A program made the position numbers and the translations under genes. The notes beneath the pieces were generated by a model. The model saw only the letters and a program-made list of their open reading frames with translations, was not told where the DNA came from and ran no database searches. From contig JAXMAA010000003.1 of NCBI GenBank assembly GCA_046350615.1, positions 9,695 through 73,694 on the forward strand: a DNA stretch of 64,000 nucleotides, written 5' to 3'. This DNA is from Candidatus Saccharimonadales bacterium. Lineage in GTDB: Bacteria; Patescibacteriota; Saccharimonadia; Saccharimonadales; UBA7683. Positions 3 through 45,359 of the stretch are shown in pieces. Positions within the stretch are counted from its first letter, which is position 1. Every line of letters begins with the position of its first letter.

Positions 3-647
3 ACGAATGCACTCAGGCAAATGAGAGCCAAGGAGCGTCGAACGACCAGCTTTACCGGCCATTACATTGATGCTCTGCAAACCTTTGCTGAGCGCCTGGG
101 CTTCTGGCCTAAGCTGGTCTTTGACCGAGGCTTTGGCAATGAGTCATTGGTGACTCATTTGACAGCCGAAGGCTGCACGTTCTACATTCGCCTGAAAGGT
201 GGCCGGTTCGTACACCTGGACGGGCAACGGATTGCAACCAAAGCACTTGCCCAAACAGATGCTACCGCTGAGCTGTTTGGTCTGACCTTACGTATTGTCC
301 GCAGCCCCAAGAACAGACGAGCCAAAGAGCCATGGTATATTCTGACCAACGACCAAAACAGCAGCCGAGACAAGGTTGTTAGGATATACTACCACCGCTT
401 TGAGATTGAAGAGACATTCAGAGATATGAAGCATATCTGGGAGCTCAAACGTACTCGCCTCAACAAGCCCAATAGCCTGAAAGTAATTATGTGGCTCGTC
501 AGTATCGGTATTGGATTGCTGTATCTGGTGGCGAAGCCTACCAAGCATGTCGGGTGCTTCCACTCAAAGAAACAGATATCCTGGCTCCGCCAGGCCTACG
601 AACAACTGCAGCAAGCCACGAATCTACTGCTGTGGGGTCAGGGGTGA
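3..647 (+). CDS. IS4-family DDE transposase, C-terminal portion (frame open to left window edge)
   Basis: 208-aa ORF; same frame has no stop back to nt 3; YYHRFEIEETFRDMK fits the Y-x2-R-x3-E-x6-K signature of IS4-type DDE transposases; DRGF motif upstream. Confidence 0.7.
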   Translation, partial: TNALRQMRAKERRTTSFTGHYIDALQTFAERLGFWPKLVFDRGFGNESLVTHLTAEGCTFYIRLKGGRFVHLDGQRIATKALAQTDATAELFGLTLRIVRSPKNRRAKEPWYILTNDQNSSRDKVVRIYYHRFEIEETFRDMKHIWELKRTRLNKPNSLKVIMWLVSIGIGLLYLVAKPTKHVGCFHSKKQISWLRQAYEQLQQATNLLLWGQG

Positions 648-3240: not shown

Positions 3241-3900
3241 TTACATCACCACTTTTCGTGGCTGTTTTATTTTTGGGGCTTTTTGAATTTTTACCTTAGC
3301 CTTCTTGACTGCAGACTCAATTTTTTTGGCGTCATCTTCTCGGCCAACTTTTCGGTAGGCGCCAGCAACAAGGGAGTATGTTTGCTGATTAGGTTGTAGC
3401 TTGGCGGCGTGTTCTAAGGCCTCTACCATTTTTTTGTCGTTCCCGAGTTTTTCCTGTACCTTTGCGTAGGCGATGTAACGCACAGGTATATCATCTTCTT
3501 CTTCCATGGCGGATTCAAGGGTGTGGGCGGCTTTTTGTAACTCACCGACTTCCATATAGACGAGACCGAGATTGTTGAGTGTTGAAGCGTTAGGCTCAAG
3601 ACTATGTGCTATCTCGAAGCATTCTATGGCATGCTCGAAGCTGCGCTGTTTGGCATAAAGAATACCAAGCCGGTTGTAAGCACCGGCGTTGCGCTCATCA
3701 AAGCGTAAAATGGTTAACAGCGCACGCTCGGCTCGTAGGAATTTGTTTTCCTTCAGTGATTGAAAGGCATCATCCCACAGGCGTTGTAACCGGTCTCCAA
3801 CACGTTTGGTGACAAGCTCTTCGGCCTGCTCCTCTGCGTTGGCAGTTGCATAAATTGTCCACGTGCCAATGGCGAGTACAGCTAATAATGCGTAAATCAT
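3241..3900 (-). CDS. membrane-anchored TPR-repeat protein
   Basis: N-terminal TM (IYALLAVLAIGTWTIY); repeated 34-aa TPR pattern (AGAYNRLGILYAKQRSFEHAIECFEIAHSLEPN, TLNNLGLVYMEVGELQKA). Confidence 0.75.
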   Translation of the reverse strand: MIYALLAVLAIGTWTIYATANAEEQAEELVTKRVGDRLQRLWDDAFQSLKENKFLRAERALLTILRFDERNAGAYNRLGILYAKQRSFEHAIECFEIAHSLEPNASTLNNLGLVYMEVGELQKAAHTLESAMEEEDDIPVRYIAYAKVQEKLGNDKKMVEALEHAAKLQPNQQTYSLVAGAYRKVGREDDAKKIESAVKKAKVKIQKAPKIKQPRKVVM

Positions 3901-14961: not shown

Positions 14962-15014
14962 GCGTTTGATTATATCATTAGACTTTAGTCTCTGCGACTC
15001 TTACATTACAAAAT

Positions 15015-28742: not shown

Positions 28743-29924
28743 TTATTTGGTGATGTTTGTTACAACACCTGCGCCAACTGTTCGGCCACCTTCACGGATT
28801 GCAAAAGTAAGACCTTGATCCATGGCAATTGGGGCGAGCAGTTTCACTTTGAAAGTGATTGTGTCACCTGGCATAACCATTTCTTTGTCGGCTGGAAGTT
28901 CAACCTCACCGGTTACATCAGTTGTACGGAAGTAGAACTGTGGCTTGTAACCTTTGAAGAATGGCGTGTGACGGCCACCCTCTTCTTTGGTAAGGATGTA
29001 CACTTCGGCATCAAATTCAGTGTGAGGTGTAATCGTACCAGGCTTTGCAATAACTTGGCCGCGTTCAATGTCATCGCGCTCAATACCACGAAGCAAGATA
29101 CCAGCGTTATCACCAGCTTGGCCCTGATCAAGAGATTTTTTGAAGGCCTCAATACCAGTTACAACAGACTTCTGGCTGTCTTTCACGCCAACGATTTCAA
29201 CTTCGTCGTTTACTTTTACGATACCAGTCTCAATACGACCAGTAGCAACGGTGCCACGACCTTTAATTGAGAACACATCCTCGATAGGCATCAAGAATGG
29301 CTTATCAAGATCACGAGTTGGTTCTGGTACGTAGTCGTCAAGAGCCTTAACGAGTTCCATAACAGCATCTTCGCTTGCTGGATCACCCTCAAGTGCTTTG
29401 GTGGCAGAGCCCTTGATGATAGGACAGTCACGGTCAAAGCCATTCTTTGCAAGCAGATCACGGATATCTTCTTCAACAAGTTCTACGAGCTCGGCATCAG
29501 CCAAGTCCATCTTGTTCATGAAGACAACAATTTTAGGTACACCAACTTGTTTTGCAAGCAGAACGTGTTCGCGGGTTTGTGGAAGTGGGCCATCATTAGC
29601 ACCAACCACCAAGATAGCGCCGTCGATCTGAGCAGCACCAGTAATCATATTCTTGACGTAGTCGGCGTGACCAGGCATATCAACGTGAGCGTAGTGGCGC
29701 TTTTCGCTTTCATACTCTTGGTGAGAAGTAGCGATGGTGATACCACGTTGCTTTTCTTCTGGTGCGTTGTCGATTTCGTCGTAGTTCTTTGGCTTGTTCA
29801 CATCGCTCGGAAGCTTCTTTGCCAATACGTGCGTAATCGCAGCGGTTAGTGTCGTTTTACCGTGGTCAACGTGGCCCATAGTACCAACGTTCACATGCGG
29901 TTTTGTTCGGTCAAAATCTGCCAT
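28743..29924 (-). CDS. tuf: elongation factor Tu
   Basis: [22 protein letters not shown]; 393 aa. Confidence 0.98.
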
Positions 29925-42127: not shown

Positions 42128-42778
42128 CTACATCGGGTGAACTTCAACAGGATAATGCAGCTCCGCGTAGCACCCTGCCGTCTGCGCAACATCACCTGCT
42201 TGTGCCACATACAGCTGCCGCTTAGCCGAAACACCATCACCAACCTCGTACATTTCAGGTGTTCCCACGGCGCTCATCCCAATATGTGCCAGCCAGTGTA
42301 CAGAAGGTGCATTATCTGGCCGTGCCACGGTCCAGAGTGTACGATTCGGGTTAACCAATTGATCAAATTCAGAACTAATGCGTGTAGCAACGCCCTGATT
42401 ACGATGGTCAGAACCGAGCCACACCGCAAAGTTAACACCATCATGAGTCTCAGGCACATCATACATCCCACCAGGCACTAAAGTCAGCATGCCAATAGGT
42501 TGCGATAGAGAACAAGGGACACCTACATATGTAGAACCCTTTACTACAACACGAGCAATCGGCCGGATAGCCCGCATCCTACGGGCAACCGACAACAAAC
42601 TTTGATTGTATCTGTCGACCACATACGGAAAGTCACCACCTATGCTCGCGGCGTTTTCCCTCACCAATGCTCTCACGCCCCTAGCGTGTTGCACTCCCGG
42701 TACAACTAAGTCCACGAAATCAGTTTGATCAACTTCCTCTGTTCTTTCATCCACAAATTCACGTAACGTTATCGCCAT
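42128..42778 (-). CDS. hypothetical protein, possible GNAT-type acetyltransferase
   Basis: VWLGSDHRNQGVATRISSEF resembles GNAT motif A (R/Q-x-x-G-x-G/A); weak call. Confidence 0.45.
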   Translation of the reverse strand: MAITLREFVDERTEEVDQTDFVDLVVPGVQHARGVRALVRENAASIGGDFPYVVDRYNQSLLSVARRMRAIRPIARVVVKGSTYVGVPCSLSQPIGMLTLVPGGMYDVPETHDGVNFAVWLGSDHRNQGVATRISSEFDQLVNPNRTLWTVARPDNAPSVHWLAHIGMSAVGTPEMYEVGDGVSAKRQLYVAQAGDVAQTAGCYAELHYPVEVHPM

Positions 42779-42784
42779 ATTCGC

Positions 42785-43369
42785 CTACTTTGCCGGTTTA
42801 GATACAATCGTATCTACCAGTCCATACTGTACCGCTTCATCGGCAGTAATCCAGAAATCCCGTTCCATATCTTCGTGAATCTTCTTTACTGTTTGTCCAG
42901 TGTTCTTGGCCATAATCTCTTCCAGCAAACGCTTTACTCGAAGTGATTCACGCAGATCGATTTCTTGATCGGTCACTTTACCTCTCGTGCCACTAGAAGG
43001 CTGATGTATCATGACTGTGGCATTAGGAAGCAAAAAGCGTTTACCTTTGGCGCCAGAACTGAGTAAAAATGCAGCCGCCGAGGCTTGTACGCCAATACCA
43101 AACGTTTGCACATCGTTACCAATAAATTGCATGGTGTCATATATCGCAAGAGCATCATACACACTGCCACCTGGGCTGTTAATATAGAGGTAGATGTCTT
43201 TTTTCGGATCTTCACTCTGTAAAAAAAGTAGTTGCGCCACAATCAAGCCAGCCGTGTGTTCATTAACTTCATCGTGAAGAAAGATAATACGCTCACGCAA
43301 CAGTCGGCTATAGATGTCAAAAGCGCGTTCTCCTTGACCTGATGGTTCGATAACAGTAGGAACTAACAT
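42785..43369 (-). CDS. clpP: ATP-dependent Clp protease proteolytic subunit (start at ATG 43369)
   Basis: [35 protein letters not shown] (Ser), MIHQP (His). Confidence 0.95.
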
Positions 43370-43386
43370 AATTCCATTATAGCAAT

Positions 43387-43413
43387 TTAGCACTCAAAAC
43401 ACAAGAGTGCTAA
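43387..43413. promoter_or_regulatory. CIRCE inverted repeat (HrcA operator), perfect consensus, 18 nt upstream of clpP
   Basis: TTAGCACTC-AAAACACAA-GAGTGCTAA equals TTAGCACTC-N9-GAGTGCTAA. Confidence 0.8.
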
Positions 43414-43454
43414 ACACTATTGCTTAAACTTGACTGATGTGATATAATAAAAGT

Positions 43455-43850
43455 ATGGATACATCGCAGGCCGTGAAGCGTAAGGTGGTTGAGCTGACTT
43501 TTTCGCGTGATTTTGAAGCCTTGCTATTAGGGCATCCCACTCCTCATACCTCGTTGACACACGATCTTGAGCTGGCAATTGAGCGTGGTCTGCAACGGTT
43601 GATTGAGCTTGAAGATGTGCGAGAGTTGCAGCATCAGAGTCTCATCACCCATTTAGTGGCGCAGACGAATCTGTATCAAGCAATGGAAAGTGAGTATTTT
43701 GACCACTGGAAGATCGCAGTCTCAGAAGACTTGCTTGATGAAGTTGATTTGCTACTTTTAAGTCACGGCAAGGATCTCGTTAAACTCGGTTTATTTGCCG
43801 AAACGACTGCTGCTACATTACTCATGTTGGCCGTTGCAGGATTGCGATAA
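43455..43850 (+). CDS. hypothetical 131-aa protein
   Basis: TTGCTT-17-TGaTATAAT promoter ending 6 nt before the ATG; no motif recognised. Confidence 0.55.
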   Translation: MDTSQAVKRKVVELTFSRDFEALLLGHPTPHTSLTHDLELAIERGLQRLIELEDVRELQHQSLITHLVAQTNLYQAMESEYFDHWKIAVSEDLLDEVDLLLLSHGKDLVKLGLFAETTAATLLMLAVAGLR

Positions 43851-44066
43851 GCCGCGATCACGACGAATAATCGGCCACAACTTTGTCGTAAGTGCTGTTA
43901 ATGTAAATCCACCAGAAAGAGCATTTCTGCCAAGATTTGAGATAGTAGTATCAAATTGCACCATAACAGCGCAACCCAGTTCTGTCGCTGCATTGCAGAC
44001 TCTCTGATTCTTTGTCAGGCCTAAGAGATCCGTAGCACCTTCTCGAAGCATCTCTCGCAGTGCCAT
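43818..44066 (-). CDS. possible small protein (82 aa) downstream of tig
   Basis: Starts 4 nt after the tig stop; many G-initial codons in my hand translation; overlaps the 3' end of the convergent 43455 gene by 33 nt. Confidence 0.35.
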   Translation of the reverse strand: MALREMLREGATDLLGLTKNQRVCNAATELGCAVMVQFDTTISNLGRNALSGGFTLTALTTKLWPIIRRDRGLSQSCNGQHE

Positions 44067-44072
44067 GCAACC

Positions 44073-45359
44073 CTACTTTGAGCTGACAGCCAGCAAATAA
44101 AGTCGATCAACAGTCTTTTCAGTAAGTAGTCTTGAGGCAACCTCACGACGCATATCTGGTGTATCAAATTGTGCGGCAGATTGCTGGTATTGCTGTTTAT
44201 AAAGCTCAATCCTCTGAGCAAGTTCGGCATCATCCACCGAAAGGTTCTCCTTTTCAGCCACTTCAGCCAGGACCATACCAACCGAAACTCGGCGCTCGGC
44301 CTGTTCCTTCAGCTCTTTCGCCTTCCATTCGGCCTCGTCTTTAAAACCGGCTTGCTTGATATATTCTTGCTTCGTAATTCCACGATATACAAGATTTTGA
44401 TTAAAATCATGCTCTAGCATCGCAACCTGATCGTTCACCAGTATCTCGGGAAGTGGAAACTTTGATTTCTTAACCAATTCTTTAACAATCTCATCCTTAA
44501 TTTTGTTGATCGCCTCAGACTCCTTCTGTTCGAGTAGCTGCGCCTTTACATCGCTCTTCAGATCCGCCAATGTCTTGAACGGACCAACACTTGCCGCAAA
44601 CGCGTCATCAATTTTTGGTAATTCAGAAACTTGCACATTCTTAACTGTCACCGAAAAAACAATGTCGGTGCCGGCTAGATTCTTAGCATGATAATCTTTA
44701 GGAAATACTAACTTCAGCTCCTTTTTATCATCCTTTTTTACGCCAACCAACCCTTCTTCAAAACCAGGAATAAAGCTTTTGCTCCCAAGGCTTAGTCGAT
44801 AGTCTACTCCGCTTGCCCCAGCAACCTTTGCGCCACTTTCATTGGTACCTTCAAAATCTATAACAACATCATCGCCGTTCTTCGCCGGCTTATCACTATC
44901 CTTCTTTGAAGCACTTCGGCTCGCTAGATTTTGCAGCACTTCATCGATATCTTTTGCCGTGACGGTCGATTTTGGAGCAGTTTTTTTAATCTTCTTGTAA
45001 TCGCCCAGCTTTACAGCTGGCATAACTTCTACCTCAGCAGTAAACTCAAGCTCTGTGTATGGCACAAATTTGCCGATCTCAATCTCAGGTAGATTTAAGG
45101 TTCGCAGCTTTTGTTCATCAAGTGCATTACCGTAGAAATCGTTGATTGCGTGATTAATAACACTCGCTTGCAGTTGATTTTGATCAAGCTGTTTTTCAAC
45201 AACGCTCAGCGGCGCCTTGCCTTGACGGAAACCCGCAACCTTCATTTTTTTTGCCTGCACCTGAAGCTCATGCTGTTTGGCATGTGTCAGCTCCTCAAGG
45301 CCCAGGATGATAGTTAGTTTTACTTTTGTCTCTGAAATGTCTTTACGTGATACTTGCAT
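44073..45359 (-). CDS. tig: trigger factor
   Basis: 428 aa; FRQGKAPLSVVEK ribosome-binding motif (GFRxGxxP type); central FKBP-like segment. Confidence 0.9.
   Translation of the reverse strand: MQVSRKDISETKVKLTIILGLEELTHAKQHELQVQAKKMKVAGFRQGKAPLSVVEKQLDQNQLQASVINHAINDFYGNALDEQKLRTLNLPEIEIGKFVPYTELEFTAEVEVMPAVKLGDYKKIKKTAPKSTVTAKDIDEVLQNLASRSASKKDSDKPAKNGDDVVIDFEGTNESGAKVAGASGVDYRLSLGSKSFIPGFEEGLVGVKKDDKKELKLVFPKDYHAKNLAGTDIVFSVTVKNVQVSELPKIDDAFAASVGPFKTLADLKSDVKAQLLEQKESEAINKIKDEIVKELVKKSKFPLPEILVNDQVAMLEHDFNQNLVYRGITKQEYIKQAGFKDEAEWKAKELKEQAERRVSVGMVLAEVAEKENLSVDDAELAQRIELYKQQYQQSAAQFDTPDMRREVASRLLTEKTVDRLYLLAVSSK

Follow-up and report, generated by a model that had tools for sequence, protein, structure and literature searches.

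A predicted HrcA operator enclosing the -35 element of the clpP promoter in Candidatus Saccharimonadales

Control of proteases by the repressor HrcA is already known from Mollicutes and from one streptococcus. In Bacillus, clpP is under CtsR. In Streptococcus salivarius, clpP is reportedly under dual regulation by CtsR and HrcA, as Chastanet and Msadek are said to have described in 2003. To our knowledge, Mollicutes such as Mycoplasma pneumoniae have no ClpP. Saccharibacteria (TM7) live as episymbionts, are ultrasmall and for the most part uncultured, and have reduced genomes; gene regulation in these and other bacteria of the Candidate Phyla Radiation (CPR) is, as far as we know, little described; no literature linking HrcA with Saccharibacteria or Patescibacteria was found. 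In M. pneumoniae, HrcA controls DnaK, DnaJ, ClpB, GroEL/ES, Lon, PepA, and Pip; between the genes tig and lon there is a CIRCE (PMC7737663). Chlamydia trachomatis has no classical heat-shock sigma factor, its HrcA-CIRCE system lies within or near promoters, and further predicted HrcA targets, in addition to dnaK and groE, have been put forward (PMC8762339).

The DNA analysed here is one stretch of 64 kb, referred to as the window, from a Candidatus Saccharimonadales MAG (CPR). It carries rpoB, rpoC, tig, hisS, other housekeeping genes, and a ribosomal-protein cluster (judged by eye). The arrangement of TATAAT, 6 nt, and ATG was found at many gene starts in the window. The clpP coding sequence is located at 42785..43369 on the minus strand and encodes 194 aa plus a stop codon (Pfam CLP_protease, E = 1.2e-75). 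Its ATG is at 43369-43367. The protein is 100% identical to an NCBI-annotated MAG protein (P0001; ClpP, Candidatus Saccharimonadales bacterium), and its closest matches are from Candidatus Saccharimonadales and Saccharibacteria MAGs. A GTG at 43393, which would open an ORF of 202 aa, was considered as an alternative start and rejected, because it falls within the CIRCE element described below and because the homologs begin with ML(V/I)PT. The upstream neighbour of clpP is tig, coding for trigger factor (44073..45359, minus strand; Pfam Trigger_N, FKBP_C, and Trigger_C), and the gene order hisS-tig-clpP-rpoB-rpoC is kept in related contigs. A divergent gene of 131 aa without Pfam match, ORF131, is located at 43455..43850 on the plus strand, outside the regulated unit. 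The sequence at 43387-43413 is very probably a functional HrcA operator on a sigma-70-type clpP promoter, as predicted from the sequence of this locus and of its relatives.

The window was searched for the CIRCE consensus TTAGCACTC-N9-GAGTGCTAA, a 9-bp inverted repeat, with up to 3 mismatches allowed. The sole match was at 43387-43413, which reads TTAGCACTC-AAAACACAA-GAGTGCTAA and agrees with the consensus at 18/18 specified positions. None of 100 dinucleotide-preserving shuffles of the window gave any match at the same threshold. The left arm, as seen on the clpP (minus) strand, is at 43413-43405, the spacer at 43404-43396, and the right arm at 43395-43387. The inverted repeat reaches 10 bp per arm, and the DNA hairpin has a predicted energy of -8.7 kcal/mol (z = -6.5). 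An Rfam scan of the window returned three tRNAs and nothing else, with no family matching the CIRCE palindrome. The element is positioned where a bound repressor could block transcription of a stress gene, the promoter itself being a prediction.

In the orientation of clpP, the sequence runs TTAGCACTC TTGTGT ttt GAGTGCTAA at TGc TATAAT ggaatt ATG. The -35-like hexamer TTGTGT (43399..43404, minus strand) lies within the CIRCE spacer, and an extended -10, TGcTATAAT (43376..43384, minus strand, with TATAAT at 43381-43376), follows 17 nt past the -35. The predicted operator is thereby wrapped around the -35, with its right arm between TTGTGT and the extended -10, which follows the arm after 5 nt. 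The complete geometry is TTGTGT-17-TGcTATAAT-6-ATG. If 43369 is taken as +1, TATAAT is at -12 to -7, TTGTGT at -35 to -30, and CIRCE at -44 to -18. Transcription is predicted to start at the A of the ATG (43369) and to give a leaderless clpP mRNA, because the -10 ends 6 nt ahead of the ATG. This start is deduced from a geometry which is exact in the window and recurs in relatives and at other gene starts of the window. A simple promoter consensus scan of 42700-44100 did not call the clpP promoter, because TTGTGT matches TTGACA at 3/6 positions only; the promoter was assigned on account of the extended -10 and the conservation in relatives, where the -35 is stronger than in the window. A perfect CIRCE at 43387-43413 overlapping the clpP promoter had been claimed in the first-pass annotation, and both parts of this claim were borne out: the element matches at 18/18 positions, is unique in the window, and is absent from all 100 shuffles, while the -35 is in the spacer in the window and in every relative, with the -10 shifting along. 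Its distance of 18 nt to the clpP ATG is right if counted to the A, but 17 nt (43370-43386) lie between.

Loci with clpP were gathered by ClpP protein homology alone, from five CPR genomes of a species-representative collection and from contigs with 82-92% identical ClpP. As only the protein was used for gathering, the sample is blind to the CIRCE motif. The matches listed in the species-representative scan with ClpP were mostly Proteobacteria; six CPR loci were usable, and the other 74 were taken as the negative control. A CIRCE with 0-3 mismatches was identified directly upstream of clpP in 13/13 Saccharibacteria loci (ClpP identity 70-100%), which correspond to about 10 distinct upstream sequences. 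The complete genome CP064993.1 likewise has a CIRCE on clpP. Two remoter CPR clpP loci, with 69% and 58% ClpP identity, have no CIRCE upstream. Among the matches listed, a CIRCE within 400 nt upstream of clpP, with up to 4 mismatches allowed, was seen at 0/74 non-CPR loci. In a CIRCE-anchored alignment, the information content per position is 1.78 and 1.74 bits in the two arms, compared with 0.42 in the 5' flank, 0.52 in the spacer, and 0.51 in the 3' flank; the conserved letters are exactly those of the CIRCE consensus, and the spacer is variable. Judged from these alignments, the clpP CIRCE bears the footprint of a protein-binding site which is under selection and specific to the Saccharibacteria lineage.

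The -35 hexamers of the relatives, TTGACA, TTGACT, or TTGCCA, all lie in the CIRCE spacer. With the -35 at spacer offset 1, 2, or 5, the -10 is found 5-6, 6, or 8-9 nt past the right arm, respectively, and the spacing between -35 and -10 stays at 16-18 nt across all relatives. At offset 5, the hexamer overlaps the right arm by one base. The joint shift of -35 and -10 is the strongest argument for the two hexamers being the clpP promoter. Most relatives have 6-10 nt between the end of the -10 and the clpP ATG, and no Shine-Dalgarno sequence. A leader with a Shine-Dalgarno sequence was identified in a few relatives (L082, L189, L198, L108, L184, and L192). That of L082 is about 60 nt long and lies 3' of its CIRCE.

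Such leaders bear on another arrangement, similar to that of B. subtilis, in which the HrcA operator is inside a transcribed leader, the promoter actually used lies upstream of 43413, and CIRCE works as a roadblock and/or an mRNA hairpin and not by occlusion of the -35. This is the classical arrangement in Bacillus, and a weak GGA 4-6 nt ahead of the clpP ATG in the window would fit it, as would L082 with its leader and Shine-Dalgarno sequence past the CIRCE. It is nevertheless unlikely at this locus: upstream of the CIRCE, the promoter scan called no site on the minus strand, and the pair of -35 and -10 is kept around the element in all relatives, 16-18 nt apart and shifting coherently. Also in L082, the -35 and -10 still flank the right arm. 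Moreover, TATAAT-6 nt-ATG is common at gene starts in the window.

The element could also act mainly or additionally on the divergent ORF131, and an effect on the promoter of this gene, which starts at 43455, had been suggested before. A promoter of ORF131 is predicted from sequence at 43420..43448 on the plus strand, with TTGCTT (43420-43425), 17 nt, TGaTATAAT (43440-43448), 6 nt, and ATG at 43455. Relative to this promoter, CIRCE covers -68 to -42; its end at -42 is near enough to disturb upstream polymerase contacts, and the -35 of ORF131 starts 7 nt beyond CIRCE. L215 and L213 have homologs of ORF131 in this divergent position (68% and 47% identity, respectively), and these retain their own TATAAT-6 nt-ATG promoter, but CIRCE is separated from their ATG by 50 nt in L215 and by more than 120 nt in L213, while its distance from clpP is constant. 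ORF131 is absent from most of the CIRCE-bearing relatives. The suggestion was not borne out, as CIRCE tracks clpP and not ORF131 in L215 and L213, and a role of the element in the regulation of ORF131 is very improbable. That the palindrome is not an HrcA site at all, and represents a chance inverted repeat, a hairpin terminator of a neighbour, or the target of another protein, is the least probable of the explanations considered, as the possible 10-bp hairpin and a 64-kb window in which HrcA was not found stand against a chance expectation of about zero (0/100 shuffles), a palindrome with neither a T-run nor a called terminator (none in 42700-44100; the hairpin is followed by AATTGCTATAAT) nor an Rfam match, conserved letters identical to the CIRCE consensus around a varying spacer, and a lineage HrcA which has a conserved DNA-binding domain and the same motif on its own gene.

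No hrcA, groES, or dnaK was identified in the 64-kb window, and no single contig among those examined carries both hrcA and clpP. ClpP MFO0971539.1 and HrcA MGH7158002.1, the latter from a similarly labelled MAG, belong to different assemblies. A short HrcA of 232-245 aa is widespread in Saccharimonadales, and the complete genome CP025011.1 also encodes HrcA. The HrcA of L155 is 234 aa long and matches Pfam HrcA and HrcA_DNA-bdg, both above cut-offs. It has more than 120 relatives at cluster level with 84-100% identity, several of them named Candidatus Saccharimonadales, and a second clade, 66% identical, is labelled at NCBI as Candidatus Saccharibacteria or Patescibacteria group. Given this distribution and a perfectly conserved site, we infer that hrcA is present also in the genome from which the window comes.

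The N-terminus of the short HrcA aligns to residues 16-99 of Thermotoga maritima HrcA 1STZ (E = 2e-17; 1e-22 with a profile). The lineage proteins fall short of characterised HrcAs by about 100 aa (1STZ has 338 aa), and the Pfam HrcA domain was matched in the C-terminal half only, at profile positions from about 80/107 to 215. They are members of the HrcA family according to their winged helix and HrcA C-terminal domain, minus roughly 100 residues of the usual architecture. An AlphaFold model of the short HrcA has a mean pLDDT of 53 and is confident for the N-terminal winged helix only. Because the protein is about 100 aa shorter and its C-terminal part is modelled without confidence, it may be regulated differently from the B. 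subtilis model.

The same module was identified ahead of other proteostasis genes. In named genomes, a CIRCE whose spacer contains a -35-like hexamer lies ahead of hrcA-grpE (CP025011.1, GCA_035479655.1, GCA_964634155.1, and GCA_002404195.1); this hexamer contains TTGAC in most of them and TTGCA in GCA_002404195.1. Two CIRCEs are present at dnaK of the named genomes, the first enclosing the -35 and the second just past the -10, and ftsH, which adjoins hrcA there, has no CIRCE. Several contigs have a separate CIRCE promoter for each of hrcA, dnaK, and dnaJ, with the ATG mostly 6-8 nt past the -10. In total, a CIRCE with a built-in -35 was found on CPR/Saccharibacteria contigs ahead of hrcA-grpE, dnaK, dnaJ, groES-EL, a clpC-like gene, clpB, hsp20, and clpP. 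The occurrence on canonical targets holds for the lineage only, with hrcA-grpE and dnaK in named genomes and dnaJ, groES-EL, hsp20, and the clpC-like gene on CPR contigs. One of the clpC-like genes is on contig L130, which is syntenic with the end of the window in TyrRS (59% identity) and PBP1A; ORFs of this contig are 53-63% identical to named Saccharibacteria loci.

A metagenome scan was run with the pattern TTAGCACTC-TTGAC-N4-GAGTGCYAR and gave at least 121 sites on at least 120 contigs. Downstream genes were assigned by blastx to probes, most of which were Pfam-checked; the GroES, GroEL, GrpE, and DnaJ probes were used without a Pfam scan. Among the matches listed, hrcA was downstream of 36 sites, dnaK of 26, clpP and a clpC-like gene of 10 each, groES/EL of 5, a gene for a Zn-ribbon protein of 5 (high-GC contigs), hsp20 of 4, and clpB and dnaJ of 2 each; at 11 sites the gene had no assignment, and 10 sites were too near a contig end. 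These counts are not natural frequencies, because the pattern demanded TTGAC and near-perfect arms and the counts are those of the matches listed. A CIRCE with TTGAC in the spacer was also observed outside CPR, at a Thermoleophilia locus and on high-GC contigs, and the design with CIRCE around the -35 is for this reason not unique to CPR. By its predicted sites, the CIRCE-promoter module serves classical HrcA targets as well as Clp genes.

A CtsR box, defined as the direct heptad repeat RGTCADNNANRGTCADN with up to 1 mismatch, was not found near clpP. The window contains two matches to it, at 29422 and 60204, which is at chance level (2.2 expected). HrcA appears to be the only recognisable input on clpP in the sequence, and a second input is apparently absent. 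The idea of a consolidated regulon, put forward in the first-pass annotation, fits the lineage, as the same module is present on chaperone and Clp genes and no CtsR box is present near clpP. Taken together, the predicted sites suggest that the protease and the chaperones of Saccharibacteria share one stress switch.

The proposed mechanism is as follows. With the -35 in the 9-nt spacer of the operator, most of the stretch between -35 and -10 is taken up by the promoter-proximal arm, and the extended -10 comes next; an HrcA dimer bound to CIRCE would keep RNA polymerase off the -35 region and repress clpP by occlusion. When unfolded proteins build up, the activity of HrcA would be lost. In the B. 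subtilis model, HrcA depends on GroEL/ES for its activity and loses it when GroEL/ES is titrated away. On derepression, clpP would be transcribed together with hrcA-grpE, dnaK, dnaJ, groES-EL, the clpC-like ATPase, and hsp20. For clpP, we infer HrcA binding, the transcription start, stress induction, and dependence on GroEL from the arrangement of the locus. As a tentative extension, somewhat less likely than not, the whole proteostasis network in Saccharibacteria, and probably more widely in CPR, might be under the control of one master regulator, the truncated HrcA of about 235 aa. This network would comprise the DnaK system, GroES/EL, the small HSP, the ClpB and ClpC-like unfoldases, and ClpP, and one cassette (a CIRCE with -35 in the spacer, a -10 5-9 nt past the arm, and a leaderless start) would replace the schemes with several regulators (sigma-32, CtsR, ClgR, and HspR) of other bacteria.

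The clpP CIRCE and its relatives outline a concrete regulon with one repressor and one operator type in chaperone and Clp protease promoters. Such a regulon can be of use in CPR genome annotation, in calling promoters and start codons as well as in predicting stress regulons, and in reading the transcriptomes of cultivable TM7 strains. The promoter geometry suggests that Saccharibacteria may commonly use leaderless mRNAs, on which no literature was found for this group. The interest of the locus is modest; it is an entry to stress regulation and promoter structure in Saccharibacteria and holds no surprise for the HrcA field.

Compared with the classical HrcA/CIRCE system of Bacillus, the operator consensus TTAGCACTC-N9-GAGTGCTAA is identical and the N-terminal winged-helix domain of the repressor is homologous. 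Also alike, as predicted from the CIRCE sites, are the autoregulation of hrcA and the targets dnaK and groES in the Saccharibacteria lineage. The two systems differ in that the target here is clpP, which is under CtsR in Bacillus, and in that the operator here encloses the -35, whereas in Bacillus it is downstream of the promoter, in the leader. The mRNA here is predicted to be leaderless and would have no CIRCE hairpin in the transcript, and the lineage HrcA is about 100 aa shorter. Chlamydia trachomatis is similar in its reliance on HrcA-CIRCE and in having extra predicted targets, but these use the relaxed motif TAGCA-N15-TGCTAA, whereas the sites here are near-perfect and conserved in the lineage.

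Mycoplasma pneumoniae also has a small genome, and its tig-CIRCE-lon parallels tig-CIRCE-clpP here, but the protease is Lon instead of ClpP and the phylum is another one. In S. salivarius, the reported CIRCE-type HrcA operator on the clpP promoter is an experimental precedent; HrcA is said to act there with CtsR, whereas no CtsR box is present here, and the lineage (CPR here) and the promoter architecture are different as well. Given the precedents of Mycoplasma lon and S. salivarius clpP, CIRCE control of a protease gene is less unusual than the earlier reading of this DNA implied. CtsR is the usual regulator of clpP in Firmicutes. The locus represents a known kind of regulation, HrcA/CIRCE, at a new target, and the understanding of HrcA/CIRCE itself is unchanged. 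Particular to this case are the CPR lineage, the lack of an evident second input, the combination of a CIRCE around the -35 with leaderless starts, and the short HrcA.

The gene divergent from clpP, a 131-aa ORF (ORF131; window positions 43455-43850, plus strand), was assigned to no family in the Pfam search. The two closest relatives, L215 (2584-2913, minus strand) and L213 (2497-2817, minus strand), carry homologs at the equivalent position, with 68% and 47% identity, respectively, over about 110 aa. In the window and in both relatives, the ORF131 copy is preceded by a predicted promoter arranged as TATAAT, 6 nt and ATG. ORF131 looks like a genuine gene restricted to this lineage. An 82-aa ORF was also called at 43818-44066 on the minus strand, antisense to ORF131 and overlapping its 3' end.

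Between clpP and rpoB there is a 216-aa ORF (42128-42778, minus strand), for which Pfam gave only a sub-threshold match to GNAT acetyltransferases. A weak homolog at the equivalent place was detected only in L215. Three other relatives (L216-L218) have an ORF between clpP and rpoB that is similar in size, and no gene was called there in the more distant relatives. As the ORF begins only 6 nt past the clpP stop codon, the two genes are probably co-transcribed, in which case the 216-aa ORF would come under CIRCE control too.

At many gene starts throughout the window, a -10-like hexamer ends 6-10 nt ahead of the ATG and no Shine-Dalgarno sequence is obvious; examples are the starts at 3900, 43369, 45359, 51718, and 60173 on the minus strand, and at 1937, 43455, and 61638 on the plus strand. 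Counted across the window for ORFs of at least 90 aa, 23 pairings of the ATG with a -10-like hexamer fell at offsets 6-10, versus about two per offset elsewhere. This clustering, together with the lack of an obvious Shine-Dalgarno sequence, suggests that leaderless mRNAs are common in this Saccharimonadales genome; a literature search turned up no paper on leaderless mRNAs in Saccharibacteria. At the window start, a 208-aa ORF (21-647, plus strand) looks, by eye, like the C-terminal region of a transposase of the DDE type (IS4/IS701-like).

On Saccharibacteria-like contigs, dnaK has a pair of CIRCEs spaced about 46 nt apart: the first encloses the -35, and the second directly follows the -10. 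Such pairs are located at 14967 and 15015 on L209, 12511 and 12558 on L212, and 17607 and 17653 on L227, as well as on many of the metagenome contigs L089-L208. The doubling of the operator, around the -35 and after the -10, suggests that dnaK would be repressed more tightly than clpP or hrcA. In one clade (L219 and L225), hrcA itself bears such a CIRCE pair.

The HrcA of Saccharimonadales is 232-245 aa long (e.g., L155 2380-3081, L209-L212 10001-10705, and the database relatives P0121-P0361), versus 338 aa in the Thermotoga maritima structure 1STZ. It retains the winged-helix domain plus the second, C-terminal half of the HrcA domain as defined by Pfam, and about 100 residues are absent relative to 1STZ. 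The absent stretch may correspond to the inserted dimerising domain; an AlphaFold model of the short protein was of low confidence.

In another phylum, represented by metagenome contigs of high G+C content (0.62-0.69; L093, L096, L107, L132, and L164 among the matches listed), the gene of a small protein of the Zn_ribbon_8 family (FmdB-like; Pfam E = 2e-12) lies downstream of a CIRCE whose spacer contains TTGAC. This gene is not known as an HrcA target. A Thermoleophilia MAG (L074, 17308-17334) also has a CIRCE-like site that contains a -35, TTGGCACTC-GTTGACTGT-GAGTGCCAA, away from clpP in an actinobacterial locus retrieved for its clpP. The design with the operator placed around the -35 is therefore not limited to CPR.
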